Source of the DNA: Saprospira grandis DSM 2844
GTDB taxonomy: Bacteria > Bacteroidota > Bacteroidia > Chitinophagales > Saprospiraceae
Direction of reading: 5' to 3'
DNA length: 64,000 bases
Assembly: GCF_000275825.1 (NCBI RefSeq)
Contig: NZ_JH719942.1
Location: 1,060,988 to 1,124,987 of the forward strand
Shown here: piece by piece, positions 19,106-42,321 of the stretch
Numbering within the stretch: position 1 is the stretch's first letter
How the letters are laid out: each line of letters begins with the position of its first letter
Made by a program: the position numbers and the translations under genes
The notes under the pieces: generated by a model
The model's input: only the letters and a program-made list of their open reading frames with translations
The model's database searches: none
Told to the model about the DNA's origin: nothing

Positions 19106-19978
19106 CTAAAAAATACTTTGATTTGTGAGTCGGAGGGCAGCACGGAGTGCATTGAGCATATTTCCATGCGTTTGAATTTCTTGAATATCGAGACCAATAT
19201 CGACAATAGTTTGGGCCACATTGCCAGAAATGCCAGAGAGCATTGCTTGGCAGCCCATCAGTTTGGCGGCCTTGCTCATTTTGATCAGGGCATTGGCCAC
19301 CTCGCTATCCATAACGGCGATACCGCGAATATCGAGAATAAAGACCTTGGCGTTTTTTTCAGCAATGGCCTCGAGCATAGCGTGCATCACCTGTTGGGCG
19401 CGTTCGCTATCTAGAAAGCCCACCAAAGGCAGCAGCAGAATGCCTTCCCAAAGCGGGGTAATGGGTGTAGACATAGAGGAAAGCGTTTCCTCTTTTTCTC
19501 GGAGCAATTCATCTTTGGCCGAGCTATAGCCATCGGTGAGGGTAGAGACCGCAATGCCCGTAAACTTTCGGTAAGTTTTGAGTAGATTCAGGCTGAGCAG
19601 GCCTTGTTGTTCTAGTAGATCTTGGACCTCTTGATGGTAATAATTGAGGAATGCCAGGTAGGCATCGAAGGGGATGCCCACGCTGGCGAAGACCTGTCCA
19701 AAAAAGCGTTGGCGTTCGATATACTCATCATCGGCTTGGCCGGAGAGCAAATCATCCCAGAAAATGTCTTCACTATCTCGGATTGCCTGCAAGACATCTT
19801 CGGTATAATAGCTTAGGAAGAAAGGGTGATTTTGCAGCCAATCATAGAAGCGTTGATAGAGTGCATCTTTTTGATCATAAATTTTTTGGCCTGCTTGGGC
19901 AAGTTCTGTTAGCTCTTCATCTTGGAGAAAAAAGAGTGCTTGATAGTAGGGCCAATTTTTTTCGTTAGGATCAATCAT
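19106..19978 (-). CDS. RsbR-like protein with an N-terminal helical sensor-like domain and a C-terminal STAS domain
   Basis: The C-terminal ~110 aa (VFILDIRGIAVMDSEVANALIKMSKAAKLMGCQAMLSGISGNVAQTIVDIGLD...) look like STAS. Confidence 0.6.
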   Translation of the reverse strand: MIDPNEKNWPYYQALFFLQDEELTELAQAGQKIYDQKDALYQRFYDWLQNHPFFLSYYTEDVLQAIRDSEDIFWDDLLSGQADDEYIERQRFFGQVFASVGIPFDAYLAFLNYYHQEVQDLLEQQGLLSLNLLKTYRKFTGIAVSTLTDGYSSAKDELLREKEETLSSMSTPITPLWEGILLLPLVGFLDSERAQQVMHAMLEAIAEKNAKVFILDIRGIAVMDSEVANALIKMSKAAKLMGCQAMLSGISGNVAQTIVDIGLDIQEIQTHGNMLNALRAALRLTNQSIF

Positions 19979-19984: not shown

Positions 19985-20968
19985 TTAATAATTTTGGATA
20001 TGCAAGAGGACCAGGGTTTGGTTGAGCAGGATGTAGCCTACTTCACCAAAGGTAAAGGGTCCTTCATAATTGCCTAGCTGTTCGCCATCTAATTTAAAGT
20101 TCAGATAATTCACGATACAATTGCAGGCTGTAATGGCGGGGGAATTGGGCATTTCTTTACGGAAAGCCTGGGGATTATAATCTACTGTTTTGGCCAAATG
20201 ATAGACTTGGTCTGTAGAAACGGGGGCATAAAAATAGACTATTTTTTCCTCTACTCGTTGGATAGTGGTGTTAATCAGGGCTCCGGAATAGTTGGAAATC
20301 AGGGGTAGGCTTCCGTCTATGCCCTTCCTTTTACAATAATGTGCAAAATTTTGTTTTTCGCCATTGATCAGGGCTTCGCTGGCTTGAAAATCGGTAGTTA
20401 AGAACTGAATATCGTCATCTTGGCCTTCTTCGTAGGGATTATAGATTTCGATTTCGGCATACTGTGCTGCGGGCAATTCGACATGCATAAGGACCGCTCG
20501 GTTCTTCATTTTTTCTGCTTTTGGGCCATAATAGGCAGCGGGCAGATGGCTGGGGTCGGCTTCTAGTTGTCGGCCAGTGATCCAGCCTAGAATGGGTTGG
20601 TCGTAGAGTCTATCATATTGGCCAATATCTAGGGCATAGGCCTTATGCACTTCTGAAAAAGCGGGCAGTGCAATATAGCTAAAGCCATTTTCTGGGCGAT
20701 CGTCCAGTAGTTGTTCCAGTTCTTGGGCCGAGTAGCTTTTGATTTCGGCTTTTAGGGCCAGATCGCTCAGATTAGAGACAAAAAGGCGGTTAAGATCTTT
20801 TTGCGCTCCTTCTCGGCTCATGAAGTAGGGCGTACTTCCGCCCAGCCATTGGCCGGCGGGCAGTTGGTCTAGTAAGCGTTGGCTACCTGCGATCAGCAGT
20901 ATTTGGCCAGATTCAATTAGTGCTTGGGTTTCTTTTAGGGAGAGGAGTTGATTTTGAAGCTTAGCCAT
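19985..20968 (-). CDS. uncharacterized cytoplasmic protein, tandem paralog 3 of 3
   Basis: 327 aa. About 75% identical to paralog 2 over long runs (LPAGQWLGG..PYFMS, FVSNLS.LALKAEIKSYSAQE). Confidence 0.6.
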   Translation of the reverse strand: MAKLQNQLLSLKETQALIESGQILLIAGSQRLLDQLPAGQWLGGSTPYFMSREGAQKDLNRLFVSNLSDLALKAEIKSYSAQELEQLLDDRPENGFSYIALPAFSEVHKAYALDIGQYDRLYDQPILGWITGRQLEADPSHLPAAYYGPKAEKMKNRAVLMHVELPAAQYAEIEIYNPYEEGQDDDIQFLTTDFQASEALINGEKQNFAHYCKRKGIDGSLPLISNYSGALINTTIQRVEEKIVYFYAPVSTDQVYHLAKTVDYNPQAFRKEMPNSPAITACNCIVNYLNFKLDGEQLGNYEGPFTFGEVGYILLNQTLVLLHIQNY

Positions 20969-21071: not shown

Positions 21072-22049
21072 TTACTTATCCTGAATATAGAGCAGGACCA
21101 GCGTTTGGTTGAGTAAAAGGTAGGCAATTTCGCCAAAGGTAAATGGCCCGCCATAGTTGGCCAGCTTTACGCCATTCAATTGAAAATTGAAATAGATAGA
21201 AATGCAATTAAAGGCTGTTTGGGCGTTTTCATGGGGCATTTTATCTAAGAACGCATTAGGGCTATACCTAATTTCCTTGGCCCAATAATAAATTTGGTCG
21301 GTAGATACTGGGCCATAAAAATAGACTCGATTTTCTTCAATCCGTTCAATATCGATATTGACCAAAGCGCCAGAGTAATTAGCGAGCAGGGGGAGTTGGC
21401 CCTTAATGTTGTTGCTACGGCAATAGTGGGCAAAATTTTGTTTTTCGCCATTGATGAGGACCTCTGCGGCGGAGAAGTCATTTTCTAAGAACTCGATACG
21501 GTCGCCTTGGCCTTGTTCGTAGGGATTATAGATTTCGATTTCGGCATATTGGCTTTCGGGCAGTTCAATGTGCATCAATACGGCCTTATTGCTTAGGCAA
21601 CTAGCTGTTGGGCCATGATAAACGGCTGGAAACTGTTCATCTTTGGCCTCTAGGTCTTTTCCAGTAACCCAACCTAAAATTGGAGAGTCGTAGAGGCTTT
21701 CATATTGTCCAATTTCTATAGCATAGGCTTTATGGACCTCAGAAAAAACGGGCATAGCGATATAGCTAAAGCCATTTTTGGGCCGATCGGCCAGTAGTTG
21801 CTCAAACTCTTGGGCCGAATAGCTTTTAATTTCAGCTTTTAGGGCCAGATTGCTCAGGTTGGAGACAAAAAGATGGTCGAGATCTTTTTCTGCGCCGGCT
21901 TCACTCATAAAGTACGGAATAGTTCCCCCTAGCCATTGGCCTGCGGGCAACTGATCGAGTAATTCTTGGCTAGCGGCAATCAGCAAGAGCTCTCCGGCTT
22001 GAATGAGGCGGCAGGTTTCTTCTAAGGTTAATATTTGGTTGTTCGGCAT
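21072..22049 (-). CDS. uncharacterized cytoplasmic protein, tandem paralog 2 of 3
   Basis: 325 aa, the same family. Confidence 0.6.
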   Translation of the reverse strand: MPNNQILTLEETCRLIQAGELLLIAASQELLDQLPAGQWLGGTIPYFMSEAGAEKDLDHLFVSNLSNLALKAEIKSYSAQEFEQLLADRPKNGFSYIAMPVFSEVHKAYAIEIGQYESLYDSPILGWVTGKDLEAKDEQFPAVYHGPTASCLSNKAVLMHIELPESQYAEIEIYNPYEQGQGDRIEFLENDFSAAEVLINGEKQNFAHYCRSNNIKGQLPLLANYSGALVNIDIERIEENRVYFYGPVSTDQIYYWAKEIRYSPNAFLDKMPHENAQTAFNCISIYFNFQLNGVKLANYGGPFTFGEIAYLLLNQTLVLLYIQDK

Positions 22050-22086: not shown

Positions 22087-23070
22087 CTATTCTGTTTTAA
22101 CATCTAGAATAACCATAGTTTGGTTCAGGACCAGATAGGCGATTTCGCCAAAAGTGAAGGGGTAATGGTAGCCTTTGGTGTAGTTTTCTTCTCCGCCCAA
22201 TTGCATAAAGTTAGCGATACAATTGTAGGCGACTAAGGTCGTTTCGGTTTTTGGGGGCAGTTTGGCCTTAAAAGCGGCTTGTCGATTTTCTATAGTTTTG
22301 GCAAAGCGGTACGTTTGGCTTTGAAAAACGGGAGCAGCAAAACTGACAGTTGTGGCAGCTTCTTCGGCCTGATAGATAGAGGTATTGAGTTGGGCACCGC
22401 CAAAATCTCCGACCAAGGGGTATTCCATATCAATTTGATGTTCTTGCAGATAGCTCAGAAAGTTTTGTTTTTCGCCATCAATCAAACAGTCCTCTACCTG
22501 ATAGCCATCTTCTAGGAATTGGATATTGGGGCCATCATTTTGTTCATAAATATTCACAATAGAGAGCTCTGCATATTGCTCTGCAGCAAGTTGGGCGTGC
22601 AGGGCCACAAGTTGGTCCGTATAGACCGCTCCATCTTGGCCATTCACCACTAGTGGTTGAGCGGCCTCGCCCCAAACAATACCTGTGACCCAACCTAGGG
22701 TAGGCACATCAAATAGCTTTGGGTTTTGGCTAATTTGCAAGGCATAATTGGCCTGTACTTCCTGAAAAGCGGGCATAAGTAAATAGCTAAAGCCATTTTC
22801 TGGACGATCGTCCAGCATTTGCTCCAATTCTTGAGCGCCATAGGCCTGAATGCTAAAATCTTGAATTTCAGTAGTCAGATCTGTCACAAAAACCTGCTCT
22901 CGGTTCAAAGCACCGCCCTCTTCAGTCATAAAGTAGGGAATGCTGCCGCCGATCCAGTTGCCTTTGGGCAAAGTTTTCAAAATTGGTCCATCTGCGGCAA
23001 CAACTAAGGTTCGGCCTTGCTCAATCCATTCTGCACAGGTTTTTTGGGAAATCAGTTGGTTTTTATTCAT
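22087..23070 (-). CDS. uncharacterized cytoplasmic protein, tandem paralog 1 of 3 (most divergent)
   Basis: 327 aa with shared motifs (LP.G.W.GG.IPYFM, GFSY...PAF.EV...YAL, GEKQNF..Y, PFTFGE..YL.LNQT.V.L). Confidence 0.55.
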   Translation of the reverse strand: MNKNQLISQKTCAEWIEQGRTLVVAADGPILKTLPKGNWIGGSIPYFMTEEGGALNREQVFVTDLTTEIQDFSIQAYGAQELEQMLDDRPENGFSYLLMPAFQEVQANYALQISQNPKLFDVPTLGWVTGIVWGEAAQPLVVNGQDGAVYTDQLVALHAQLAAEQYAELSIVNIYEQNDGPNIQFLEDGYQVEDCLIDGEKQNFLSYLQEHQIDMEYPLVGDFGGAQLNTSIYQAEEAATTVSFAAPVFQSQTYRFAKTIENRQAAFKAKLPPKTETTLVAYNCIANFMQLGGEENYTKGYHYPFTFGEIAYLVLNQTMVILDVKTE

Positions 23071-23379: not shown

Positions 23380-24096
23380 TTAGTCTAGTGGTTCACACTG
23401 CGGTCGCATTTTGTCAATTGTACTTTTTGCCAAATCATTAACGCCTTCTAGTTCGCCTTCTTCGGCTTTCCAGAAAGTAGCACAGGTCTTTAAGGGACTA
23501 TCACAAAGCATTTTAGATTGTAGTTTCCCCGTGCTATCTTGGGCATATAGCCAGAGCTCGCAATGCTCATAATTTCCCAGATAAGTCCCTTTGGCTTTGG
23601 GTTGGCCATTCTGATAAAATTCTGCAAAAGGCCCATTAGCCTCATTATTGCGCATAACCACCCATTCTTTGATCTGCCCATTGGGGTAGTAGGTTTTCAG
23701 GCTATCATCTAAGGCGCCCTCCTTATAATGGCCGGCCTGTTTTAGTTGGCCATTGGGGTAATAATAGCTCAGCGGACCATCTAGTTGTCCTTTTTCATTG
23801 TACTGAAAATGGCCAGCCAATTGCCCATTTTGGTGATATTGTTTTTCTTCTCCAACGCTTAGGCCCGCCTTCATTTTGCGCTCCAAAAGCAATATTTTTT
23901 GGCCTTCTTGCAGGCTATACTCCTTATACTCGCCTTCTTTTTGCTGATTGATGGTATCAAATTGGTATTCCATCAATAAATCGGCCTGCTGTTCTGTTTT
24001 CCAGATTTTTGGATCTTCATTTTTTGGAGCCTGCTCCTCGCCTTGGCAAGCCATAAGAAGAAGAAAACTGCCTGCGGTTATTATTTTTTTGATCAT
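23380..24096 (-). CDS. MORN-repeat (YwqK-like) lipoprotein
   Basis: Repeated G-x-Y--NGQLK/NGQPK units and an LLLMACQ lipobox. Confidence 0.55.
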   Translation of the reverse strand: MIKKIITAGSFLLLMACQGEEQAPKNEDPKIWKTEQQADLLMEYQFDTINQQKEGEYKEYSLQEGQKILLLERKMKAGLSVGEEKQYHQNGQLAGHFQYNEKGQLDGPLSYYYPNGQLKQAGHYKEGALDDSLKTYYPNGQIKEWVVMRNNEANGPFAEFYQNGQPKAKGTYLGNYEHCELWLYAQDSTGKLQSKMLCDSPLKTCATFWKAEEGELEGVNDLAKSTIDKMRPQCEPLD

Positions 24097-24937: not shown

Positions 24938-24955
24938 CTGGTTTAAGAAAATAGA

Positions 24956-24992
24956 AAGGCCGTTTTCCGGATAGGGAAAACGGCCTTTTTTT
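24956..24992 (+). terminator. rho-independent terminator
   Basis: GGCCGTTTTCC-ggatagg-GAAAACGGCC-TTTTTTT. Confidence 0.6.
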
Positions 24993-25185: not shown

Positions 25186-26637
25186 TTAATCTACAGGCGT
25201 AAGCAGTCCTTCATTATTGGTTTTGATGAGGCAAACCATAGCGTTGGTGGCTACATTCATGGTGCCCGTCATGAGGTAGCCCTTGAGTTCTCGGCGGGTA
25301 GTACCGGGGACCAGCTCGCGGATAGGCATGACCGTTCCGGCTTGGTTACCGGCTAGGGCTTGGCTACCATTATTGACAGAAGCGCGGCCAAATTGGCGAA
25401 TTTCGCCATCCCATTCTGGGGTGAGGTTGGGGCCTACTTTTGCCATAGCGAGTTCATCGCCAAAGTTGGCATCATCATATTGGTAGACGGCACTGATGAC
25501 AAAGCTAGGTTCATTGCCAGCCACCTCGGAGGGGACCAAAGCGATGCTACCGGCTAGCAAATCTTCTGTGGTATTGGTAAAGCCGCCATTTGTTTTGCCT
25601 AGATATCGGCGTTGAATTTCTCCGACGCCTTCATCGACTTGTAGGAGGAGGAGGTCCCCTTCATTCACTTCATTTCTAGTGGGGTCTCTATTTTCGACAT
25701 GGCTCAGAATCGTAATTCTGGCATTTAGGGAATCGTAGCAAGAGCCTCCGGCCACCAAAAACATATCTTGGCCGCCAAAACTTTGTTGCGAGACCTCGCT
25801 ACCCGAAGAGGCGCGAAATCTGATGACGAGGATATCGGTCGTAAAGTTGGGGTTGGTTGGGGTACCATTTTGCTCATCTCGTTTTTCGGCGGTAGCGGTT
25901 ACCATATAGGCGCCATTGAGTACCTCTACAGAGGCGGCGCGATCTTCACCGACAAATCCGCGGACAGAGCGCCAGATGATATTGCCATCTAGGTCTAGGC
26001 GCATAAGGAGCACATCTGTTTTATCTAGGGCTTGATAATCTTGGTATTCGGGTTTACCGATATAGACATCGGTAGTTTCTCCGGCCAAGACAAAGCCTCC
26101 ATCGGGAAGTTCCTTAATATCATAGACAAAGTCCTTATAAATTTCTGAAGAGCTTAGGGTAGATCCATTGAGCAAGACTTTTTCCCAGACCACATTTCCT
26201 TCTAGGTCTAATTTATAGAGCACGATATAAGTGGCATCTAGGGTAGATTGTCCGCCAACTGTCACTACGGTAGTTCGGTTACCGGCTACTAGGTAGCCAG
26301 ACTCATCGGAGAGGACCAGCACGCGGTGGCCTGTTTCTTCATAGCCGTTACTTCCATCGCCAAAGGTTTTGCTCCATTCCTCATTGCCCAGAGAATCTGT
26401 TTTAACGAGGTAGAAGTCATTGTAGCTAGCGGCATTGACAAAAGCGTTGGAAGAGCCGAGGATAATGAAGCCTTTATCGGTAGTTTCCTTAACGTCTTTT
26501 CCGATTTGGTCATTTACATGTCCGTAATACTTAACGAAAGCATCTTCTTGATTGGAGGGAGAGATATTCTCTTTTTTGCAAGCGCTAAGGCCCAGTAGCA
26601 GGAGCATACAGCTAGCGAAGAAATACTTATTGATCAT
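25186..26637 (-). CDS. lipoprotein with beta-propeller-like repeats
   Basis: LLGLSAC lipobox. Periodic D-x-x-G-N-x-x-W motifs. Confidence 0.4.
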   Translation of the reverse strand: MINKYFFASCMLLLLGLSACKKENISPSNQEDAFVKYYGHVNDQIGKDVKETTDKGFIILGSSNAFVNAASYNDFYLVKTDSLGNEEWSKTFGDGSNGYEETGHRVLVLSDESGYLVAGNRTTVVTVGGQSTLDATYIVLYKLDLEGNVVWEKVLLNGSTLSSSEIYKDFVYDIKELPDGGFVLAGETTDVYIGKPEYQDYQALDKTDVLLMRLDLDGNIIWRSVRGFVGEDRAASVEVLNGAYMVTATAEKRDEQNGTPTNPNFTTDILVIRFRASSGSEVSQQSFGGQDMFLVAGGSCYDSLNARITILSHVENRDPTRNEVNEGDLLLLQVDEGVGEIQRRYLGKTNGGFTNTTEDLLAGSIALVPSEVAGNEPSFVISAVYQYDDANFGDELAMAKVGPNLTPEWDGEIRQFGRASVNNGSQALAGNQAGTVMPIRELVPGTTRRELKGYLMTGTMNVATNAMVCLIKTNNEGLLTPVD

Positions 26638-26660
26638 AGTTTTCTAATTTAGGTAGGAAA

Positions 26661-28055
26661 TTAATTCCCTTTAATATCTGAGGCTTTATCTTTAATTTCG
26701 TCAATCACCTTAGAGCTAGCGCGGCCACGGCGAACATCTTCGATGATACCGGGTTGATCTCTTTCGAGTTCTCGAACGAAGCTATTGAGTTCTCGTTTTA
26801 GTTCGGAGTCTGTAGTTCGTTTAGCGTTTCGTTTTTCTTTTTTGATAATTTTATTGAGTCGGCGATTGATATAAATTTCGTTGTACTGTCGTTTTTTTCT
26901 GGGTTTGTAGAAAGACTTTTCGAAGCCGATAGTTAGCGAATAGTTATCCATACGGAAGTCATTATCTACATGTCCGTATTCGTAGAGTAATTCGGGGTTA
27001 CTATAGCGATTTTCTCTATTGACGGAATTCATCAGGAAGCGGTTATATCGGGCTTCGATAATAACGAAATCGTGTCCTAGGCGAATTTTTGCGCCTGCGC
27101 CAGCGAGTAGGGAGACATTAAATCCTTCTCTTAGGGAGAGGCGGTCGGCTTCTCCGGCTTGGGTTTCGGCAGAGAGGCCAGATCCGGCGATAACGAAGCT
27201 ACGTTCGCCACCGACAACGGCTCCTCCGCCATCAGATTCTCGGGTGGTATTTCTTTGGATATTGACCATACTTGCAGAGAGTAAGAAATTGGGTGCTCCT
27301 CCGATATAGGCGTAGGGGATTACTTTTTTGTAGCGTTTAAAATAGTGTTCATAGCGTAGCATCAGGGGGATATCGATCCAGTACTGTCGTTCATCGAACT
27401 GCAGGCTAGAGTATTGCAGTGTATTTTGGGCGGGGTTTTGCAAACCTGTCGAGAGGAACATACTATCGATAGCTCGGTAGCTTCTGAGGGCAAAATTACC
27501 TTCTAGCGCGAGTGTAAAGTCTCTCCAGATAGGCATTTCTATACCGATAGCGCCAGAAAAGCCGAGTACAAATTGGTTATAATTTTCTGCTCGATAATTA
27601 TTATTATCTACATTATAGGTTTCTAGTGTTTGCAGGCGGGTATTATTGACGCCAATATTTCCATAAATAGAGACTAGGGGTTTATGTCTGTAAGTTCTAG
27701 AGAGATAAATCAGGTCATAAGAATTACTGGGGTTCAGAGAATCTGCCTCATAGAGGGGATTAATTTTGAGGAGTTCTTCAAAGGAGCGGGTAGCATCATC
27801 TAGGTCATTTCGGAAGAGGTAACTTTCGGTAAGTAATTTATAGCCTTCTTCTCTTTTTGCTTTAACGGGAAAAGCTCTTTTATTCGCTAGGCAATCTCGG
27901 ATCAGGTCGCCCACTTCTTCTAGCTGCCCTTCTTCATAGGCTCTTTTAGCCTCATCTAGGTGATCGTTACAGAGGTCCTCATCTAGTGATTGTGCAGATA
28001 AGGCTTGAGGGCTGAGGGCTAGGGCGACAGCGGCCCAAAGCAATTTTAGTTTCAT
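26661..28055 (-). CDS. hypothetical outer-membrane protein (start at MKLKLLW) with a helical N-domain, a beta-barrel-like core and a charged coiled-coil tail
   Basis: Signal peptide ...ALSAQ. Alternating hydrophobic strands. K/R/E-rich C-terminus. Confidence 0.4.
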   Translation of the reverse strand: MKLKLLWAAVALALSPQALSAQSLDEDLCNDHLDEAKRAYEEGQLEEVGDLIRDCLANKRAFPVKAKREEGYKLLTESYLFRNDLDDATRSFEELLKINPLYEADSLNPSNSYDLIYLSRTYRHKPLVSIYGNIGVNNTRLQTLETYNVDNNNYRAENYNQFVLGFSGAIGIEMPIWRDFTLALEGNFALRSYRAIDSMFLSTGLQNPAQNTLQYSSLQFDERQYWIDIPLMLRYEHYFKRYKKVIPYAYIGGAPNFLLSASMVNIQRNTTRESDGGGAVVGGERSFVIAGSGLSAETQAGEADRLSLREGFNVSLLAGAGAKIRLGHDFVIIEARYNRFLMNSVNRENRYSNPELLYEYGHVDNDFRMDNYSLTIGFEKSFYKPRKKRQYNEIYINRRLNKIIKKEKRNAKRTTDSELKRELNSFVRELERDQPGIIEDVRRGRASSKVIDEIKDKASDIKGN

Positions 28056-28207
28056 AATAAAAAGCGAATTAGTAATTATTAAACTCGAACTCATTTTGGT
28101 AGACGGCAAGCGTCTGGCTTGGCTAAGGAGTAGATAAGGCCTAAAAAAGGGGAAAGCTAGCCCGGCTAGCCCTCCCCTGGCTCTATCTTTAGAGGTATAT
28201 TATTGTA

Positions 28208-31200
28208 TTAGCTCCCTTGTTGGTATTCATTACCACAGGTAGAAAGGGGAACGCGTTCGCCTTCTGCAGTAATAATATACAGGCGTTGGTTGCGTGGATC
28301 TCTTTCGGGATCATCGGTACCGATATATTTCTTCCATTCTTTATTAGAAAGGTTGCGGCGCACCATAGCGCAGAGTTGGCTAGCGTAGCGGAACATATCC
28401 ACCTCATAGATTTTCACTTCTCCATTAGCGCAGCCGGTAAGGACTTTTTGTCCATCATGAGTAAAGGCCACAGAGAGGACCCAATCTTCATGATCTTCTA
28501 GGCGAACGGGCTGGAACTTAGGATCTTTGAAGGGGAACTCCTCTTCATTATCATAGTTCTCATAGGCTTGATTCCAGATTTGCCAAAGTGTAGCTCTTTT
28601 ATCGAGGCTACCCACCACGAGCATAGTTCCATCATCAGAGAAGCTGAGGTCACTAATTTTGGCGCTATGATAAACCAGGCGTTCGGGAACATAGCGGTTG
28701 CCGTCTTGGTCCAGACCATTTTTATAATGGTAGATATCAAAGATGAGCAAAGAGCCATCTTGGTAGCCTACGGCAACAAATCGGCCAGTGGGGCTAATAG
28801 CTACAGCGGTAGCATTGCGTTTGTTGTAGGGGTTTTCTAGTTTAAAATCCTCTTGGCCCGACTTAATATTCCAGATAGAGACATCAGGAGATCCTCCGGC
28901 GCCAGCCACATGTTGTCCATCGGCAGAAACGGCAATAGAAGTCACTCGGTAAGGCGTACGTTCTACAATAGGAGTAACTTCTCCTTTCATATTGGTATAC
29001 TTGATACTGCGGTCATCTCCGGTAGAGATTACGGCATTGCCCGTAGGCAAGAAAGCGAGGTCCCAAACGCGGCGGCCACGGTGAACGTCTACCTTAAGCA
29101 TGCGTTCTTCTTTGGCCACATCCCAAATTTCCATATAATCTTCATCGCCAGCACGGACCAAGAACTTTCCTTCGGCACTCATATCCATACAACGATAAAC
29201 TCGGTTATTGCGGTTGCGGGTAAGCACCTGCGGAGCGCCTGCGGTTTTTTGTTCCTCTTTGCTATCAAAAACCTGTAGGGGCCATTTAAACAGCCAGCCA
29301 TCAGAACCTGTAGTATAGACTTTTTGGTCAAATTCTCCTTCTGCGGTAGAGACTACAATAGATCTCATGGCACCAAGGTGCGAGAGGCCATCAGGAGCTA
29401 CATTCAGGCTATTAAAGTCTGGGTTATCTCCTACCCCCTGCATTTTATCTATTGCCTTATAAAGGGCTTCATAGATATAGGCATCATGTTCTTTTCCCCC
29501 ATTTACCCGATTCAGCTCAAAGGCTTCTTTAGCCAAAAGTGCTTCTAGGTCGGGTTCTTCTACTTTCCAAGACTTTACGGCTACAGACTGGGCCAAAGAA
29601 AGGCCTTTTGTCATAATCGCCTTAAGGCGTTCTTCTTGGGCTCTACGTTCTGACTTCATGGCATCGCGGCGAGCTTGTTCGGCCCTGAGCTTAGCAATTT
29701 CTGCTCTTTGGCGTTCCAATTCTGCCGTATCCAGAGCGATTAGGGCCTTTGAGCGAGCCTGATTGGCGGCTCTAGACTTCAATTCAGCAATATCTGAAGA
29801 GCGAATTGCCTTTTCGGTAGCCTGACGGGCCAAGAAACTTTCTCTTTGGGCACGATTAGCATTTACCTTGGCCATATAGCGGCTCTCATTGGCTCTTTGC
29901 TTGGCTATTTCTGCCTGATAAGCAGCTAGGCGAGCCTCTTTTTCTTTGCGGCCAGCCACCTGAGCCGATCGGCGGGCACTATCTAAGGCCACACCGGCCA
30001 AGAGCAATAGAATAAGACAGATGGCCCCAAAGCCCAAAGAAAGATAAGTAATCAGCATACGGGTTTTCCGTTTGCGGTCATCATCTTCCCGCTTATCTCT
30101 AAGTTTTTTATCAGAGGCTTCATGACTTTTGAGTAAAAAGTCAATCGTTTCATCATAAGTAGTATTATACCGAGAAGCCCAAGCCTTAGTAGGCGCTAGG
30201 CGCTCAGGATGTTCCTCATCATAAGTATGCGGTTCATACCATTTGAGGCCCAAACTCAATTCGGGTTCTACCCAAAGTGCCCCCTTCCCTTCAAAGTAAA
30301 GGGCAGCGGCAGTAGATAAGCGAGTATAGGTTTCAGCGGCCTCATGCTCTTCTTCAGCCCAATGCGCCAAACGATCCCAATAAGAAATTAAGCTTTCATG
30401 CGTAATACTAATTACGGTATCTAGCTCCAAATCATCCCGATTTGGGGGCGCCTGCAAAAAGCGGCGGTCCGCCCGAGAAAAGGCCACAATAACCGGAGCC
30501 AAACTCTCTATACTTTGGTCCGTCAACTTGCAAAGCTCGCCTACAGTAGCCACCCTACGACTAGCCGAACCATCGGCATTGCGCTCAGAAAGCGCCCGAA
30601 ACATTCGTTGACAAGTAACTTTTTGCTCTTCTGTTTTCAGCTTATTATAGGCCTCCTCGGCATGCACAGAAAGTGCCTCCTTAATAGTCCCTACATTCTC
30701 ATAATGCTTAATCCCCAAAGGAAGACTAGGGTCAGAATCTACCTCTACCCAATTATCCCAGACACGCATCATCAAATGCTGCAAACGAGGCAAATCGTCA
30801 AAGTCTTCTCCAATATCGGAAATCATGCGGCTCACTAGGTCCGGAGCAATACTCGCCCCCACCGCCTTAACCGGCATAATCATCACCTTCTTGAGCTCTT
30901 CTACCTTCATTTTCGGAATCAGAAACTGCCCATCGTTAATCGCCTCCGGCAAGCCCCTAAAATCCGTACAACGTCCAATATAATCCGAGCGCATCGTCAA
31001 TACAATATAAATAGGCGCTTCGCGCTGCCTAGATGCATTGAGCAATAAATTGACAAAGGTAGCCGCATCTTCCTGAGCCGCTGAAGAAGTTTTTGCAAAG
31101 GCAAAAATCTCTTCAAATTGGTCAATGACCACCATCAAATTGGCCCGCTCTACATCCGCATCTTTATACGCGTCTACCAAACCCAAACTCCCTCGGCGCA

Positions 31201-31567
31201 AGCTTTTCTCGACAATAGCCGGATAGTTAGGGTCCATCTTACTGTCAGGGTGCAAAACCCCTCTAGAAGCCAATTGACGACTCAAGTTTCCAATCGGATT
31301 ATTGCCAGGCTGACAAACCGCAATTCGCCAACTCTGCCCTGCCTGCCCCGCAAAACCATCTTTTAGCTTGGGGACCAAGGCCGAACGAACTAGCGAGGAC
31401 TTACCTCCACCTGCACCTCCTACCAACGCCAAAAAACGATTGCCACGAATTTTACGCAACAATTCATCAAGCTGCTTATTCCTTCCGAAAAAAAGCTCTC
31501 TTTCTTTGGCCTCATAAGGGCGCAGTCCAGGATAAGGTTCCTTAGTTAAAATTTCAAAGGATGCCAT
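28208..31567 (-). CDS. STAND-type P-loop NTPase - TM helix - coiled coil - WD40 beta-propeller protein
   Basis: N-terminus PYPGLRPYEAKERELFFGR...LVGGAGGGKSSL (Walker A). TM LITYLSLGFGAICLILLLLAGVAL at ~aa 500. A/R/E/Q-rich coiled coil of about 150 aa. C-terminal WD-like repeats (...ISTGDDRSIKY.., SIWNIKSGQ, LWQIWNQ). Confidence 0.65.
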   Translation of the reverse strand: MASFEILTKEPYPGLRPYEAKERELFFGRNKQLDELLRKIRGNRFLALVGGAGGGKSSLVRSALVPKLKDGFAGQAGQSWRIAVCQPGNNPIGNLSRQLASRGVLHPDSKMDPNYPAIVEKSLRRGSLGLVDAYKDADVERANLMVVIDQFEEIFAFAKTSSAAQEDAATFVNLLLNASRQREAPIYIVLTMRSDYIGRCTDFRGLPEAINDGQFLIPKMKVEELKKVMIMPVKAVGASIAPDLVSRMISDIGEDFDDLPRLQHLMMRVWDNWVEVDSDPSLPLGIKHYENVGTIKEALSVHAEEAYNKLKTEEQKVTCQRMFRALSERNADGSASRRVATVGELCKLTDQSIESLAPVIVAFSRADRRFLQAPPNRDDLELDTVISITHESLISYWDRLAHWAEEEHEAAETYTRLSTAAALYFEGKGALWVEPELSLGLKWYEPHTYDEEHPERLAPTKAWASRYNTTYDETIDFLLKSHEASDKKLRDKREDDDRKRKTRMLITYLSLGFGAICLILLLLAGVALDSARRSAQVAGRKEKEARLAAYQAEIAKQRANESRYMAKVNANRAQRESFLARQATEKAIRSSDIAELKSRAANQARSKALIALDTAELERQRAEIAKLRAEQARRDAMKSERRAQEERLKAIMTKGLSLAQSVAVKSWKVEEPDLEALLAKEAFELNRVNGGKEHDAYIYEALYKAIDKMQGVGDNPDFNSLNVAPDGLSHLGAMRSIVVSTAEGEFDQKVYTTGSDGWLFKWPLQVFDSKEEQKTAGAPQVLTRNRNNRVYRCMDMSAEGKFLVRAGDEDYMEIWDVAKEERMLKVDVHRGRRVWDLAFLPTGNAVISTGDDRSIKYTNMKGEVTPIVERTPYRVTSIAVSADGQHVAGAGGSPDVSIWNIKSGQEDFKLENPYNKRNATAVAISPTGRFVAVGYQDGSLLIFDIYHYKNGLDQDGNRYVPERLVYHSAKISDLSFSDDGTMLVVGSLDKRATLWQIWNQAYENYDNEEEFPFKDPKFQPVRLEDHEDWVLSVAFTHDGQKVLTGCANGEVKIYEVDMFRYASQLCAMVRRNLSNKEWKKYIGTDDPERDPRNQRLYIITAEGERVPLSTCGNEYQQGS

Positions 31568-33335: not shown

Positions 33336-34127
33336 TTATTCATCCCCATCATCATCTAAGTTCATCGCTGTAGATTGGCCCTTAGGCATCATGCTCGTAT
33401 CATCCCAGAGCTTAGATACCCAAAAGCGAAGTACCGCCTGTTTCTTCTCTTCCTTATCCAAGTACCCGTAATTTCCAGCTGTTTTTGCTTCTAGTCTGAA
33501 ATTGTTTTCTGCGCCCGTCCAACGGAAACTGATTTTCCGCCAAAACAAACCATAGCTTGCTTTTACATGCTTGACCACCCCTTGGCCATAAGTAGCCGTG
33601 GCAATTGCATAAGTAAGGGCATACTTCGCTCTTTTCTTTCGGCCAGCAGCATGGGCAATAATTTCAAAAGCCTGAACGCCCTCCAAATCTGAAACGATCG
33701 GGTGCCAGCGGCCATCGGCAGGGATTTCTCCTTGAATAAAAGTGCCTACCCGACCATTTGCTCCAAGCATGCCATTCACCTCTAGCTTAAAATTGGGCAA
33801 AGTGGTCCCGATCCCTACATTACCTCCCTTACGTAAGAAAAGAAGGCTTTCATTTTCGCCATCATTAAAACTGAGTCCTTCACTATGTGGAGTGGGGTTC
33901 ATAGAAATGCTAAAAGAGGCCTGAGGGTCTCGGATGCTTTGATAGAAGCTCATCAAGCGCTTATTTGGGCCCTGAGTGGCCAACATAAGGCCCTCAGTTG
34001 AACTTTGGGAAAAACCATCGTCTACTTTATTGACCGTAGAGTCGATAAGGTCGGCAAAGTTCACTTCAGTGGGGACCATCCCCCTTTTGAATAAATTTTT
34101 GAGTGTGCTACGCGTGAGTAAAGCCAT
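33336..34127 (-). CDS. phage tail-fibre-like protein (candidate eCIS fibre)
   Basis: The motif GNVGIGTTLPNFKLEVNG is common in tail-fibre and collar proteins. It is the last gene of the contractile-system cluster. Confidence 0.35.
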   Translation of the reverse strand: MALLTRSTLKNLFKRGMVPTEVNFADLIDSTVNKVDDGFSQSSTEGLMLATQGPNKRLMSFYQSIRDPQASFSISMNPTPHSEGLSFNDGENESLLFLRKGGNVGIGTTLPNFKLEVNGMLGANGRVGTFIQGEIPADGRWHPIVSDLEGVQAFEIIAHAAGRKKRAKYALTYAIATATYGQGVVKHVKASYGLFWRKISFRWTGAENNFRLEAKTAGNYGYLDKEEKKQAVLRFWVSKLWDDTSMMPKGQSTAMNLDDDGDE

Positions 34128-34199
34128 TGAGTTGGATACTTTAACTTGAGCTTGTTTAAATTTTTTAGTCAGCAGCTAGACTAAGGCAAAAAAAAATGC

Positions 34200-35185
34200 T
34201 GCAAAGCGCTTATTATTGTTGATTACGACAAAAACAAAAAAAGGCTTTGCAACATGGTTGTGAATTTATCAAAAGAATTTATTACGGAAAAAATATTAGC
34301 ATTTTTTCCCGAAAAAAAATTGGCTCGAAAAACCAAAGCGCCTCTGTGGCAAATTGTTAAAGCGATAATTTATAGGCTTAAAACAGGTTGTCAGTGGAGA
34401 GAATTACCGATACAATCTTTTTTTGACGAAGTTCTAATTTGCTGGCAAACAGTATATTACTACTTCAATAGCTGGTCCGAGTCTGGTATTTGGCAAAAAG
34501 TGTGGATCCAATTTCTAGCCCATGAAAAATCTTGTTTAGATTTATCTAGTATACAGCTTGACGGAAGTCATACCCCAGCGAAAAGAGGGGGCGAAGCTGT
34601 GGGTTATCAGGGCCGAAAAAAGTCCAAAACCACAAATGCTCTCTTTCTCACAGATAAAAATGGGCTGCCAATCGCTATGTCTCCGCCTTTTGCGGGAAAC
34701 CATAATGATTTGTTTGAAATCGAGAGTCATTTCCAAAAAATGCTTGCCGATCTGCAGCTTTCAGACATCTCTCCTGATGGTTTATTTATGAATGCTGATG
34801 CAGGGTTTGATAGCAAAAAACTTAGAGAAAACTGCCAAAAAATGGGCATTATCCCTAATATTGACCACAACAAAAGAAATAGAAAAAAAGCTTATTATCA
34901 AGATATTATAGATGAGGAACTTTACAAAGAACGCTTTTCTGTTGAGCGAACTAACGCATGGATTGACGCATTCAAAATTTTACTCATTCGTTTTGAAAGA
35001 AAAGCCGACAACTGGGCGAGTCTACACTATTTAGCCTTTATACTTATTTTCCTAAAACGAAATTTTTAAACAAACTCTTAAATGTAAAGGCGGGTGAATG
35101 CCATCAAATTTAAAAAATTGTTTGGAAAAGGCGCAGTCAAAACGATTTTATAATTTAGATTTTCTTAATAACGCCTTTATTTATT
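34200..35185 (+). mobile_element. IS5-family insertion sequence (approximate ends)
   Basis: A single DDE transposase ORF with imperfect terminal inverted repeats (AAAGCGCTTATTATTG / CAATAAATAAAGGCGTTATT). It sits inside the injection-system locus. Confidence 0.45.
34254..35069 (+). CDS. IS5-family DDE transposase (DUF4096 N-terminus)
   Basis: N-terminus ...WQIVKAIIYRLKTGCQWRELP... is typical of IS5/IS1182-type transposases. Confidence 0.7.
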   Translation: MVVNLSKEFITEKILAFFPEKKLARKTKAPLWQIVKAIIYRLKTGCQWRELPIQSFFDEVLICWQTVYYYFNSWSESGIWQKVWIQFLAHEKSCLDLSSIQLDGSHTPAKRGGEAVGYQGRKKSKTTNALFLTDKNGLPIAMSPPFAGNHNDLFEIESHFQKMLADLQLSDISPDGLFMNADAGFDSKKLRENCQKMGIIPNIDHNKRNRKKAYYQDIIDEELYKERFSVERTNAWIDAFKILLIRFERKADNWASLHYLAFILIFLKRNF

Positions 35186-35191
35186 GTTTTT

Positions 35192-35395
35192 TGGGCTTTG
35201 GCGAGGCGGCGCAGCCGCCTGCGAGCGCAGCGAGCCATGGCCCAGCGCTGCGGAGTGGGTGGCCGTAGGCCAGACCGAGTTTTTTGAGCGCAGCGAAAAA
35301 AACGAAGGGCCGAGCAGGCTTGCGAGCCCCGCAGCATAGCGGCGGCCGCCCCTACTAAAAAGGGCGGCCGCGGGCCCCAAAAAATGGATCTTATA
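35192..35395. repeat. GC-rich interspersed repeat
   Basis: ggcgaggcggcgcagccgcc...gcagcatagcggcggccgcccc...aagggcggccgcgggccccaaaaaa. Confidence 0.6.
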
Positions 35396-35460
35396 GCACT
35401 AAAAAAGGCCCAAAAGTGCGTAGACTTCTGGGCCAAATCGGTTATGTTTTATACTATTGT

Positions 35461-38400
35461 TTAATCGTCTAATTCTCGTTCTTCGGTCATTACAAAGTCG
35501 CCATCAAGCATCATATTGTCTAGGCCAGCTTTGGCTGGAGACTGGAAGGCCACCTCGTCGAGGAGATAGAGTGGATTTTTCTCGAAAGGAATGAGGACAG
35601 ACCAAGGCGTGGTAGCCTTGAGCAAGGGAGAAGAAGAATTATCGATAGCGGTATCACCTACATCGAAGCCCTCGCCGCTGGGGAAGACCTGCACGGCAGA
35701 AAACTTAGTGACAAAATCGACATATTCTCTTTTTTCGATAAAGCTAAGGAGGACATCCTTCGCCATTGTGCCGCCTAATTCAAGTTCTCTTTGGCCGCCA
35801 TACATCCAGGGGCAGACAAAGTCCATAATATCCTTATTCAATTTTTTGAGGAAGGTACCGTTGTTCATACCTTTTTGGAAGCGGAGACCGCCGGCCACTT
35901 TCACTCTTTCGTAGATAGGATTACGGAGTTTGATATCGACAAAAGGCGAAGCTAGCGGGATGAGATAATCGCGGATAGCCTCTAGGGTGGCGTTATTGAC
36001 CATGGGGAGTCGGCCTTGGTGAGAAGCCTTAATTCTGGGTACAACAACGAGGACCACCTGTCCTTTTTCGATGAACTCTTCATTGCCAATATGCGTCACA
36101 CATTTAACTTGGAAGATATCGGGAAACTGGTCGAGGATAAGGCGTTCATAATCCCAGGCAGAGACGGCTCTACCTTTATGGCGGAGGCGTTCGCTGCTTC
36201 GGGTATAGAATTCTTTTTTATTTTCGCCGGGTCGGCCTTCAAAGGAGCCAAAAGGTTGTTGGACCGAGCGAATTTGGACCAATGGGCTAGCCAGATTTTT
36301 AATCTTATTGGGGGCTAATTTTTCTTCTAAGTGTTTCACCTCCTCTTCGGGGTTTCCGGCCCAGGTTGCCGAGATGGCTTGGGTAGAGAGGTGCAAAATG
36401 GTGGGCATACGGCTAGCGTCGCCACGGAGCGAGGCGCGCAGCCAGAACTTTCCTTTTTTGAAGATGGTATTATTATCTGAAATATCTCTGGGGATATCGA
36501 AAGTGATAATTCCGGAGTTATTAAAGAAATTGGTGGTATCGTTTAGGATTTGGGTTTGCGAGAACTCCTTCCATTCGTCATTAACGAGGAAGCTCCAAAC
36601 GATTTCGGCCTGTTTTGCTTCGCTGCTTCGGCCCTTCATCATAGAAAAATAGTCTTGATTTTCTTTGAGTTCGAAGTAGATAGAGAGCGTAGCGGGTGGA
36701 TTAAAATCTTTGACTCCGAGGAAGAGGTAAGCGTCTTCATCGTAGGCGGGAAGCAGAGTGGGTTTAACTGGGCGGCCTTGAGAGAAGTTGCGCATCACAC
36801 CGAAGGGGTGGATATGGAACAACTCTTCAGCCACAGCTCCAGAGCTATTTACGGTACCGATAGACATGATATTGACTTGGGCCGTAGCGGTATAGTCGAT
36901 ACTCATATTTCGGATAACGGGTGTAAAAGGTTGGTTGGGGAGTTTCTTTTTCTCCTTCGTTTTGGGGTCTGCATTATGGGCAGCCACATCGGCGTAGAGA
37001 TTGGGAAACTCATCGTGGGCGAAAGCCGAGGGCGGGTTGGTCAATTCCATGCGGAAATAGCCCGTTTGGGTTTCGCTGGTATAGGTATCAATTTGTTTAA
37101 GGTTGGCCTGAGGTTCTAGGTCAAAGAGTTTAAGGTCGATATGATTTAGGCAGGTAGTCTTACTAATGCCATGAACATTATCTTCATCTTGTTCGAAGAG
37201 GAAATACTCTTTAACATTGTTCTTATTTTTGGGGAAGAACTCCCCTTCTTGGAGGGCCGACAATTTGATTCGGTAATCTTCATTGCGGATACCGAGGCCA
37301 TATTCTCGATAATAGCCACGGAGGCCTTTTGTATTATCGGGTAGATTATGCCAATTGATATTGATTTTGAGGTTAGTCAGTTCCTTTTTGAAGAGCTCGG
37401 TTTTTCCGATAAGGAGATAAGAGCCTAGCTTTGGGGTAGGGCCAAAAGCTTGGAAAGGGATACTACCTTCTAGTTGGCCGTATTCATTGCTTAGGTTGAG
37501 GCGTTTGATTCCTTTGACTTCAACATCAATGTTAATGCGTTCTAGGCTTAGCTCTTTAAGGAAAGAGTAAGAGTAGGTCACATTTTCGTTTTTGTGGAGG
37601 ACCTTCATAACGGGAAGGCTAGTATCGAAATCGGGGCCTAAGACATTGGCATTATAGCCTACGATAGCGGGGGCATTGGCGGATACGGTAGCGAGCAGGC
37701 TAAACTCGGGGATATTCCAATTTTCTGGGGGAAGGAGTTCGCAGCTTTTGGCTTCGATCCAACCTTCTTCTCCAGAGAGGACTAACTTCAGGCTATTTTT
37801 AAAGACCTTAGAGAAGGCATCTTCTTTAGAGAGGCCTTGATTTCGGCTAATATCCTTAATCAGAAGATTTAGGGTATACATAGAAGACTTATCGAATCGC
37901 ATGCGCAACTTGATACTACGGTGGCCTTCTTCCATTTCGAGGATAGGGGCAGCCATGGCCCAGCCTACTTCGGCATAGACCATTTGGCGTTCATCGGAGG
38001 CTTTTTCGAGTAATTCTTCTCCGAAGGAGGGCCATTCCTCTTCATTATTGATAAAGCGTTTGCCTAGGCCATCTCTAGAGTTGGCGATAGGGGCGGCATA
38101 CATATTTGTGATAAGGCGATAAGAGCTCCCGATACCGATTTTGGGATTTTTGCTCACAAAAAGCGTCTTGACTTCATCTATTTTAGCTTGGTTTAGTTCT
38201 ATGCCATAATCGGTTTTATAGCGAATAGCTTTACCGTCTTCATCGACGCCAGCGTCTAGGAGTGTGCCTGCGGGCAGGAAGAAGCTATCAATATGTTTAG
38301 CTAAGTTGAAATAGACATTCACCTGATCGGGTTGCAGGCCTCTTTCTTGCATTTTGAGCACATCGTAATAATAGAAATCGAGATGCTTTTCGGTGAGGGT

Positions 38401-39231: not shown

Positions 39232-39296
39232 GCTAAGATGCGCTTAAGAGATGGTTATTGTTGTTCTGATAGTGATAGTAGTGGGGTCTAAAGGAA

Positions 39297-39713
39297 TTAG
39301 AGTTCGGTACCTTCTGCGAGATAGAAGGGATAGACCATATTATTACGAGCATTTACGCCCTTAATTTCATAGACCACATTGACATTCACACGGCCACGGA
39401 GCTGCTCGCTTTCGTCTACATCTACAGAGATGAGGCGGATACGGGGTTCGTGATAAAGGATAGCCGTAGTAATGAGATCTTGTATACGGATTCGGGTAGC
39501 GTTATTGATACTTTGAAAAGCCTGGCTATGGATATCGCAACCATAGCTAGGGTTCATGATTCGTTCGCCGGGGAGAGTAGAAAGAAGGATATTAAGGGAT
39601 TCCCTAATATCTTCTTCATCTTGAGACATCACAATTCCGCGGGTAGAGTCGCTAAAGCGGGGCGGGAAGCTCCAGCCTGAGCCTAAAAATGATTTTTGGA
39701 TATCGTCTGACAT
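39297..39713 (-). CDS. gp25/GPW-like baseplate wedge protein
   Basis: SFLGSGWSFPPRF...ESLNILLSTLPGERIMNPSYGCDIH... is the GPW_gp25 signature. Confidence 0.75.
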   Translation of the reverse strand: MSDDIQKSFLGSGWSFPPRFSDSTRGIVMSQDEEDIRESLNILLSTLPGERIMNPSYGCDIHSQAFQSINNATRIRIQDLITTAILYHEPRIRLISVDVDESEQLRGRVNVNVVYEIKGVNARNNMVYPFYLAEGTEL

Positions 39714-39769
39714 GCTTAGAAATTTCTTATCGTCTAAAAATTGGGATCAACTATTTATCTTAAGAGCAG

Positions 39770-39905
39770 AGCGGGCAGTTGCATTGGCCTAGCGCTGCGG
39801 AAGGGTGGCCGTCAGGCCAGACCGAAGCCCGCAGGGCTGAAGGGCCGAGCAGACTTGCGAGCCCTGTAGCATAGCGCCGCAGCTTTGCTGCGGAGGCCCC
39901 AAAAA
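39770..39905. repeat. GC-rich interspersed repeat lodged between the PAAR and gp25 genes
   Basis: gcctagcgctgcggaagggtggccgtcaggccagaccgaagcc...gaagggccgagcagacttgcgagccctgtagcatagcgccgcag...ggaggccccaaaaa. Confidence 0.6.
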
Positions 39906-40196: not shown

Positions 40197-40217
40197 AACT
40201 TATTGATTTTAATACTG

Positions 40218-42062: not shown

Positions 42063-42098
42063 TTTTCTTTATTTATCTTCTAGTTAATTGAGTCAATT

Positions 42099-42287: not shown

Positions 42288-42321
42288 AAGCTGTATATTT
42301 TTTTGCTGTTTTTAAGCAGGT

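Follow-up and report, generated by a model that had tools for sequence, protein, structure and literature searches.

Why would a STAND NTPase carry its repeat domain on the outer side of the inner membrane, next to genes for outer-membrane proteins and near a contractile injection system (CIS)? This question is raised by three adjacent genes (genes 1-3) on the minus strand, at positions 25186-31567, of a stretch of the Saprospira grandis DSM 2844 genome. The whole stretch that was analysed, 64 kb long, is called the window below. STAND NTPases, for example NLRs, Apaf-1, Avs and MalT, are understood as cytoplasmic sensors. Here, genes 1-3 are an uncharacterised gene set that is conserved across Bacteroidota, and its NTPase shows a new architecture for a known class. 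We propose, with a probability of about 0.5, that the set forms a module that spans the envelope, serves signalling or anchoring and is coupled to the neighbouring injection system. In Saprospira, its client is likely the adjacent CIS, a subtype iv type VI secretion system (T6SSiv; the old "rhapidosomes"), which the module may position or trigger to fire. The module has the following parts.

28208 to 31567, minus strand: gene 1, a bitopic inner-membrane protein of 1119 amino acids (aa) with nSTAND1 NTPase, transmembrane helix, stalk and WD40 domain (open reading frame (ORF), Pfam, homologs).
30296 to 31537, minus strand: cytoplasmic nSTAND1 NTPase module of gene 1, aa 11-424 (PF20703).
29984 to 30058, minus strand: single transmembrane helix of gene 1, aa 504-528 (hydropathy, homologs, charge bias).
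29600 to 29983, minus strand: periplasmic stalk of gene 1, aa 529-656 (heptad register).
28364 to 29242, minus strand: WD40 beta-propeller of gene 1, Pfam matches at aa 776-1068 (Pfam; periplasmic by topology).
28235 to 28372, minus strand: C-terminal segment of gene 1 with C1066 and C1111 (homolog alignment).
26661 to 28055, minus strand: gene 2, an outer-membrane protein of 464 aa from the ATG at 28055 (PF13568, homologs, AlphaFold2).
27681 to 27992, minus strand: TPR-like four-helix N-terminal domain (N-domain) of gene 2 with two conserved cysteines, aa 22-125 (BLASTP, AlphaFold2, hidden Markov model (HMM)).
26910 to 27674, minus strand: beta-barrel of gene 2, aa 128-382, with the conserved end ...GFxKSFYKPRKKR (AlphaFold2, Foldseek, alignment).
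26667 to 26879, minus strand: charged three-helix C-terminal tail of gene 2, aa 393-463 (alignment, AlphaFold2).
25186 to 26637, minus strand: gene 3, a beta-propeller lipoprotein of 483 aa with lipobox Cys20 (AlphaFold2, Foldseek, lipobox).

The three ORFs had been called in an initial annotation of the window, and ORF calls and translations find them there. Their proteins are 98-100% identical to S. grandis database entries (BLASTP-type search). For gene 1, the identity to a Saprospira grandis protein is 99%, and 4798 homologs were found at E ≤ 1e-10, with a similarity that tracks taxonomy: 65% to Saprospira, 47% to Aureispira, 37% within Saprospiraceae and about 30% to other orders. The 1119-aa product begins with MASFEILTKEPYPGLRPYEAKERELFFGR and carries the motif GGAGGGKSS, features from which a STAND-like NTPase had been proposed. 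Pfam bears this out with a match to nSTAND1 (PF20703; E 1.6e-86, 291.7 bits where the cut-off is 27.1), and HMM searches matched both nSTAND1 and WD40 in the same protein. Walker A (GGAGGGKSS) occupies aa 50-58, a Walker B-like VVIDQFEE is present, and the columns PYPGLRPY, FFGR, GKS and DQFEE are at least 90% conserved among 117 homologs. By Pfam there is neither an N-terminal effector or adaptor domain, the NTPase already beginning at residue 11, nor a cytoplasmic output domain. A sequence search among solved structures found relatives neither for the NTPase half nor for gene 2.

The transmembrane helix that had been noticed near aa 500 is the sole strong hydrophobic segment of gene 1. Its Kyte-Doolittle 19-aa mean is 2.55 at aa 504-528, and that of the next-best segment 1.38. 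A hydrophobic segment at about aa 490-545, with runs of 20-27 residues, is kept in 119 of the best 120 homologs, among them proteins from Acidobacteriota with about 30% identity; the set of 117 served for column conservation, flank charge, cysteines and stalk. Counting lysine and arginine in the 15 aa on either side of the helix gives means of 6.3 for the N-side flank and 3.5 for the C-side flank, and the N side is the higher one in 97 of the 117 homologs. Taken together, the NTPase on the N side, the lone helix and the charge bias support an orientation with the N-terminus in the cytoplasm and the C-terminus outside, so that the stalk and the propeller would be extracytoplasmic. This topology draws on hydropathy and charge bias, as well as on the cysteine pair and the partner localisation described below.

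The region behind the helix had been described as about 150 aa of coiled coil. A heptad-periodic helix spans about aa 529-656 (window protein: AAAAAAAAAAAAAAAAAA), with alanine at one fixed heptad position through 18 consecutive heptads (register string: AAAAAAAAAAAAAAAAAASV). Each of these alanine columns is 61-91% alanine in the homologs, and the pattern is kept across phyla. Large hydrophobic residues reach at most 26% in every register, and with so few of them in the core the stalk is not a canonical coiled coil. Its length is exactly 130 aa in 69 of the 117 homologs, and most others are off by multiples of seven residues (109, 116, 123, 137, 144), although this seven-residue spacing does not hold for every one of the longest stalks (161-296 aa). 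If it forms one continuous helix, the stalk would be about 19 nm long, enough to reach the outer membrane; 19 nm is roughly one periplasm width.

Beyond the stalk, aa 776-1068 match WD40 (PF00400, E 4.5e-27) and many further propeller models of Pfam, and the N-in topology would place this region outside the membrane, as had been predicted. C1066 and C1111 behave as a pair among the 117 homologs: both are present in 91, neither in 24, and one alone in 2. This joint presence and absence is the pattern of a disulfide, which the two residues probably form.

Gene 2 had been recognised as an outer-membrane beta-barrel with a charged tail, 23 bp from gene 3. The barrel is supported by Pfam (OMP_b-brl_2, PF13568; E 2.7e-9, 37.8 bits against a threshold of 27), by AlphaFold2 and by Foldseek, and a signal peptide is present. 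Its start, however, had been set at a TTG at 28109, and homologs and signal peptide move it to the ATG at 28055. The protein is 98% identical to one listed at NCBI as "outer membrane beta-barrel protein [Saprospira grandis]", and the Aureispira ortholog carries the name "PorT family protein". The AlphaFold2 model (predicted local distance difference test score, pLDDT, 83.5) has N-terminal helices at aa 26-98, a barrel at aa 128-382, modelled with 8-10 strands, and a three-helix tail at aa 393-463. Foldseek relates the barrel to OmpT/Pla, OmpA, NspA, OmpW and OmpX. The charged tail is confined to Saprospiraceae; orthologs of other families stop at the barrel, at 350-400 aa.

The part of gene 2 that reaches furthest is the N-domain; the initial annotation had overlooked that this domain, and neither barrel nor tail, is what the outer-membrane partners have in common. 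An HMM of this domain matches the outer-membrane partner at 65 loci of the gene-neighbourhood sample, which comprises 80 STAND loci from one-genome-per-species contigs, analysed with iterated HMMs on six-frame ORFs. In 21 loci, the ORF downstream of the STAND gene is 860-917 aa long and encodes a TonB-dependent receptor (Plug and TonB_dep_Rec), with the N-domain immediately ahead of the plug. When gene 2 was compared by BLASTP with the receptor of locus L018, only aa 9-109 aligned (E 5e-8 and 2e-11), and the small barrels and the receptors have in common only this domain of about 100 aa with its two cysteines. We had considered the long ORFs as barrel-lipoprotein fusions. This was rejected, as they are TonB-dependent receptors that share the N-domain alone and had contaminated our first outer-membrane protein HMM. 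Pfam reports no STN domain in the receptor partners. A single-sequence search with the N-domain through 1.84 billion representatives gave 229 clusters at E ≤ 1e-3, mostly proteins of 340-400 aa; it returned small barrels and generic TPR proteins, not the receptor variant. Whether the partner is a small barrel or a receptor goes with the STAND clade in a neighbour-joining (NJ) tree. Since the N-domain is the sole element common to the partners, and the partner type tracks the STAND clades, we infer that the N-domain is where the STAND protein's periplasmic part makes contact.

Gene 3 had been annotated as a beta-propeller lipoprotein, and it is one by several lines of evidence. It has the lipobox LSAC at Cys20, an all-beta AlphaFold2 model (pLDDT 87, predicted template modelling score 0.87) and Foldseek matches to propellers, with CylK first (E 1.6e-16), followed by sialidases and BamB (rank 18). 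A signal peptide ending in cysteine is seen in its 37 locus homologs, 32 of which match the lipobox pattern, and the residues following the lipid-modified cysteine differ by lineage (CKK, CQK, CDT). The repeats of gene 3 also recur in many proteins with the type IX secretion system C-terminal sorting domain PF18962, which suggests that this propeller type serves secreted or surface proteins as well.

An inner-membrane anchor, a long helix, a periplasmic propeller and an outer-membrane lipoprotein recall TolA-TolB-Pal, and BamB is likewise a periplasmic propeller with lipoprotein partners. Could the module then be an energy transducer or tether working from the inside out, in which the NTPase drives an outer-membrane process through the stalk, as a nucleotide-powered counterpart of TonB-ExbBD or Tol-Pal, for outer-membrane tethering or receptor gating? 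The Ala/Lys/Glu/Arg-rich stalk resembles TolA domain II in composition and length, and gene 1 has no cytoplasmic output domain. The canonical Tol-Pal system is also missing from Bacteroidota (PMC12204202). Nevertheless, the module has no TolQR-type motor, no OmpA-like or other peptidoglycan-binding domain and no sequence homology to Tol-Pal. In addition, the receptor variant has its N-domain in front of the plug, which suggests continued use of TonB, and it is well established that STAND NTPases are switches, not motors. We regard this role as extremely improbable.

Do the three genes belong together? At 65 of the 72 Bacteroidota loci with enough downstream sequence, an outer-membrane protein with the common N-domain lies directly downstream of the STAND gene on the same strand, so the co-occurrence check proposed by the initial annotation came out in favour of a unit. 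With the helix kept among the homologs as well, neither of the two outcomes that the annotation had named as refuting its reading was observed. The starts and stops of the STAND and partner genes frequently overlap, by 4-11 nt. The lipoprotein gene comes next after the partner in 37 of 44 small-barrel loci, and across the 80 loci no other neighbour from the window is conserved with the STAND gene. In the window itself, genes 1 and 2 are separated by 152 bp and genes 2 and 3 by 23 bp, with two hairpins:

28148 to 28178, minus strand: terminator-like hairpin in the gap between genes 1 and 2, 14-bp stem with 8 GC pairs, T6 (sequence).
24955 to 24988, minus strand: terminator-like hairpin after gene 3, 14-bp stem with 7 GC pairs (sequence).

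The hairpin at the 3' side of gene 1 argues for separate transcripts in the window. It is absent from the same place in the related Saprospira-like locus L003, and of the loci checked only S. grandis has it. The synteny is conserved and the hairpin is not; the comparative data therefore outweigh it, and we uphold the three-gene unit and reject the idea of three unrelated neighbours. The hairpin may cause the inner-membrane part to be expressed at another level than the outer-membrane parts.

The reason to couple this module to an injection system, a phage-tail-like weapon, lies next to it in the window.

33336 to 52638, minus strand: T6SSiv-type CIS cluster (Pfam; HMMs from 36 loci).
48529 to 50706 and 50752 to 52638, minus strand: two tandem GH18 (chitinase-like) genes heading the cluster (Pfam).
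47485 to 48045, minus strand: Pvc16 (Pfam).
44498 to 45991, minus strand: sheath (Pfam).
40218 to 42062, minus strand: VgrG (Pfam).
39297 to 39713, minus strand: gp25 (Pfam).

The gene order is two GH18, Pvc16, f14, sheath, tubes, gp19-like tube, VgrG and gp25, then a protein of 1256 aa and a fibre-like one of 263 aa. With HMMs derived from 36 metagenome loci anchored on the sheath (each at least 12 kb, with only about 3 kb visible outside the cluster), every CIS gene of the window is matched in conserved order, and the alignment covers the last gene, from which we take the cluster to span 33336-52638. It looks complete, without f11, the DUF4407-containing f10 and f12, which head many other loci. 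The start of gene 1 (31567) lies 1.8 kb past the end of the cluster (33336), on the same strand, a link that the initial annotation had not noticed.

This proximity recurs elsewhere. Four loci found from the STAND side (L007, L008, L041, L044) have CIS core genes within 10 kb of the module. In L008, CIS and module are on the same strand with gaps of 6-106 bp, and in L044, L007 and L041 the CIS genes are divergent from an MFS-HEAT gene that accompanies the module. From the other side, eight of the 36 sheath-anchored loci carry an nSTAND1 protein with a transmembrane helix at aa 483-513 (seven of them in one BLAST cluster), and a ninth carries an N-domain outer-membrane protein with MFS-HEAT. 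This nSTAND1-transmembrane family is the only non-core family in more than four of the 36 loci. Five arrangements occur: the gene is divergent from the first CIS gene (L095 and L137), lies between tube genes (L131 and L151), or stands directly upstream as TIR-like-STAND-outer-membrane protein (L110), STAND-TonB-dependent receptor (L115) or STAND-outer-membrane protein-lipoprotein (L147, L008). In the NJ tree, all members of the STAND subclade L044, L008, L007, L041, L110 and L147 adjoin CIS genes, and those CIS-adjacent genes that were reached by similarity to the STAND protein group in a single subclade. The family is thus recurrently located in or beside CIS clusters, as an accessory module would be. 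Adjacency in the window, the four STAND-side loci and nine of the 36 sheath loci in five arrangements together point to the T6SSiv as the likely client.

Some further observations concern the injection system itself. A GH18 gene stands at the cluster head in 28 of the 36 related loci. An IS4/5-family insertion sequence (IS) element (34148-35077) lies inside the cluster, with a transposase at 34254-35069 on the plus strand and imperfect inverted repeats of 18 nt (34148-34165, 35060-35077). It sits between the 1256-aa gene and the last CIS gene, 21 bp upstream of the start of the latter; the two genes abut in 25 other loci. In Aureispira, IS insertion into T6SS genes is reported to act as an on/off switch for predation (10.1101/2024.01.29.577165). 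The first 30-50 residues of the last CIS gene product (33336-34127; MALxNRxTLKNYFKKGxxPTExHFxDLIDS) match ORFs on 17 IMG/VR viral contigs. As the viral matches cover only this N-terminal part, they suggest a tail-fibre-type attachment motif, and the protein could belong to a fibre or an antenna. The 1256-aa protein had no match in the scan of IMG/VR viral contigs.

Several findings weigh against a coupling of the module to the T6SSiv. About 72 of the 80 STAND-module loci have no CIS gene within 10 kb, and none was found within that distance in the closest relatives with enough flank, Aureispira anguillae and other Saprospiraceae loci (L165, L004, L002 and L003). Between the CIS cluster and gene 1 lies a pyruvate-dehydrogenase E1 gene on the opposite strand, and gene 1 is followed by the hairpin described above. 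The Saprospiraceae STAND clade of the window is sister to a clade of CIS-embedded genes, but this placement rests on one NJ tree with long branches, and the sheath-chosen loci are CIS-adjacent by construction. Finally, no recognisable WD40 was found in the two CIS-embedded nSTAND1-transmembrane proteins tested, L151 (12585-15779) and L095 (80-3136). About 500 C-terminal residues of these two proteins have no Pfam match, so their periplasmic domain may differ from WD40.

The main rival holds that the module serves a general surface signalling unrelated to the CIS, in which the outer-membrane partner reports a ligand or the envelope state and the STAND protein controls expression or second messengers, the adjacency in the window being coincidental. 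Most loci lack a nearby CIS gene, as just described, and several Cyclobacteriaceae-type loci adjoin thrS-infC-rplT instead. The partners in other lineages also look like signalling proteins: outside Saprospiraceae, a protein of some 1000 aa with a cNMP-binding domain, HEAT repeats and MFS-like transmembrane helices (MFS-HEAT-cNMP_binding; for example L009, 6670-9831) goes with the module in 42 of the 80 loci, and a HAMP- or Reg_prop-SpoIIE phosphatase does so in 15. The receptor variant, with its N-domain directly before the plug, resembles FecA-type transducers, and FecA-FecR-FecI likewise joins an outer-membrane protein with an extra N-domain to a bitopic inner-membrane protein with a periplasmic C-terminal half. 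The differences are that here the N-domain is TPR-like and not STN, that the inner-membrane partner is a STAND protein and not an anti-sigma factor, and that the partner in the window is a small barrel with a lipoprotein instead of a receptor. Among the conserved neighbours of the STAND loci there is no sigma, anti-sigma, extracytoplasmic function (ECF) sigma or DNA-binding family, which speaks against this reading. Coincidence also fits poorly with the presence of the module in or abutting CIS clusters in five arrangements, as the only recurrent non-core family there, with a whole STAND subclade that adjoins CIS genes and with the mere 1.8 kb between cluster and gene 1 in the window. We consider surface signalling without the CIS a possible, if rather unlikely, explanation. 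The MFS-HEAT gene itself faces the CIS cluster in L044, L007, L041 and L163.

If the module does work with the T6SSiv, is it the trigger or a part of the machine? In Aureispira, the T6SSiv (the "rhapidosomes", which are also encoded by S. grandis) spans the envelope with a C6 complex that has outer-membrane, periplasmic and inner-membrane parts, and it bears extracellular antennae (Lien et al., 10.1101/2024.01.29.577165). The same study found no TssJLM homologs, did not name the trans-envelope proteins and proposed signalling from the outside to the baseplate. Genes 1-3 might therefore be a structural trans-envelope complex, a TssJ-TssM analogue with a STAND ring, six stalks, and the outer-membrane barrel and lipoprotein as conduit or anchor. 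The inner-membrane, periplasmic and outer-membrane make-up of the module fits the three Aureispira densities, and the stalk length is conserved, changing mostly in seven-residue steps. Genetic linkage to the CIS adds to this, and STAND NTPases are a family that forms rings. TssM, too, joins a cytoplasmic NTP-binding domain to a periplasmic domain that meets an outer-membrane lipoprotein, and TssJ-TssL-TssM of the canonical T6SS and TagQRST-PpkA, the envelope sensor controlling its firing, share with the module an inner-membrane protein that has a nucleotide-binding domain in the cytoplasm and a large part in the periplasm, an outer-membrane lipoprotein and the linkage to a contractile system. 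However, NTPase class, symmetry and components differ. None of genes 1-3 matches the TssM/IcmF, TssL or TssJ families in Pfam or NCBIfam; the only such trace is TssQ_fam, to which the N-domain has a weak similarity (E 0.0038, 17.7 bits, cut-off 65). Moreover, the module is far more widespread than its visible linkage to the CIS, and its receptor and phosphatase loci look like signalling. The Aureispira anguillae triad is far from any visible injection gene, and the supplementary text of the Aureispira paper makes no mention of WD40, beta-barrel, NTPase, PorT or lipoprotein. A purely structural role thus appears distinctly improbable, and triggering or positioning the T6SSiv is more likely than forming its envelope complex.

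A precedent for a membrane adaptor encoded in a CIS cluster exists in Streptomyces, where firing requires CisA, a bitopic membrane protein whose N-terminus lies in the cytoplasm (PMC12237407). Compared by description only, CisA lacks an NTPase, a propeller and outer-membrane partners, and its host is monoderm. A bolder combination of both roles, in which genes 1-3 either make up the Saprospiraceae T6SSiv's trans-envelope complex or act as the trigger of that system, with a STAND ring and six alanine-zipper stalks that relay prey contact to the baseplate, is speculative and in our judgement unlikely. If true, a STAND NTPase would for the first time be seen to act over two membranes, and secretion systems would gain a membrane complex of a new kind.

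A further reading is a role in defence. The work that named nSTAND1 (Kaur, Iyer, Burroughs, Aravind 2021; PMC8195603) treats it as an NTPase of conflict systems and defined it in systems predicted to counter invaders, and the initial annotation had spoken of an envelope-spanning sensing or defence module. As an anti-phage system, the STAND protein would sense an invader at the envelope or at the outer-membrane partner, and cause abortive infection through a separate effector. Gene 1 resembles the nSTAND1 conflict proteins in its NTPase module (the 291.7-bit match) and, as in Apaf-1-like STANDs, in its C-terminal WD40 superstructure repeats. Among relatives, a TIR-like gene lies directly upstream of the STAND gene in 11 Bacteroidota loci. 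In Acidobacteriota (L081-L084), relatives of gene 1 with the same transmembrane position and without an outer-membrane partner have in front of them an FxsC-like TIR-like gene that shares 4 nt with the STAND start, joined in L083 and L084 by a SLATT-domain gene. Unlike the typical conflict NTPases, which carry an N-terminal effector or effector-associated domain and have every domain in the cytoplasm, gene 1 has no N-terminal effector, places a transmembrane helix and a periplasm-length stalk before the repeats, and has obligate outer-membrane partners. PADLOC gave no family at E ≤ 0.1 for genes 1-3 and none for the TIR-like partners of the relatives; on the partners from other lineages it gave only cNMP-binding and WD40/HEAT-ARM resemblances. 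No MFS-HEAT, SpoIIE, TIR-like or SLATT partner is encoded within the window, the similarity of gene 1 tracks taxonomy, and the neighbours are not defence genes. Defence is therefore very unlikely, and both it and energy transduction are less likely than the CIS-linked or the surface-signalling readings. Of the earlier description, the envelope-spanning STAND that is more than cytoplasmic stands, the sensing function is presumptive, and the defence part has no direct support.

Two groups of genes lie beyond gene 3 in the window. Three tandem DUF6976 paralogs (19985-20968, 21072-22049, 22087-23070) stand beside a protoglobin-STAS protein (19106-19978), and a MORN-repeat protein is encoded at 23380-24096.

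How might a trans-envelope module coupled to the T6SSiv work? We infer its physical contacts, signalling direction, output and client from the features above. Gene 1 would sit in the inner membrane, with a cytoplasmic nSTAND1 nucleotide switch, an alanine-striped stalk and a WD40 propeller outside the cytoplasm. The barrel of gene 2 would hold its TPR-like, disulfide-type N-domain at the inner face of the outer membrane, where gene 3 would contribute the propeller lipoprotein. The WD40 propeller could then dock on the N-domain and the lipoprotein, much as anti-sigma factors contact TonB-dependent transducers at their N-terminal signalling domain. The stalk would pass down what happens at the outer membrane or the cell surface, and the signal would drive nucleotide exchange and oligomerisation of the NTPase at the cytoplasmic face of the inner membrane.

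In the literature searched, we found no published description of a STAND protein with this succession of transmembrane helix, stalk and WD40, of its outer-membrane partners or of a link between STAND proteins and CIS. At least 65 of the Bacteroidota species genomes examined carry the arrangement of STAND gene and outer-membrane partner. A repeat "sensor" placed outside the cytoplasm, on a length-quantised stalk and wired to outer-membrane proteins, widens the uses to which the STAND switch is put. In addition, a new N-terminal periplasmic domain is defined, common to small barrels and TonB-dependent receptors. For the Saprospiraceae, genes 1-3 provide candidates for a question raised in 2024, namely which proteins make up the trans-envelope part of the T6SSiv in ixotrophy, and how its firing is coupled to prey contact.

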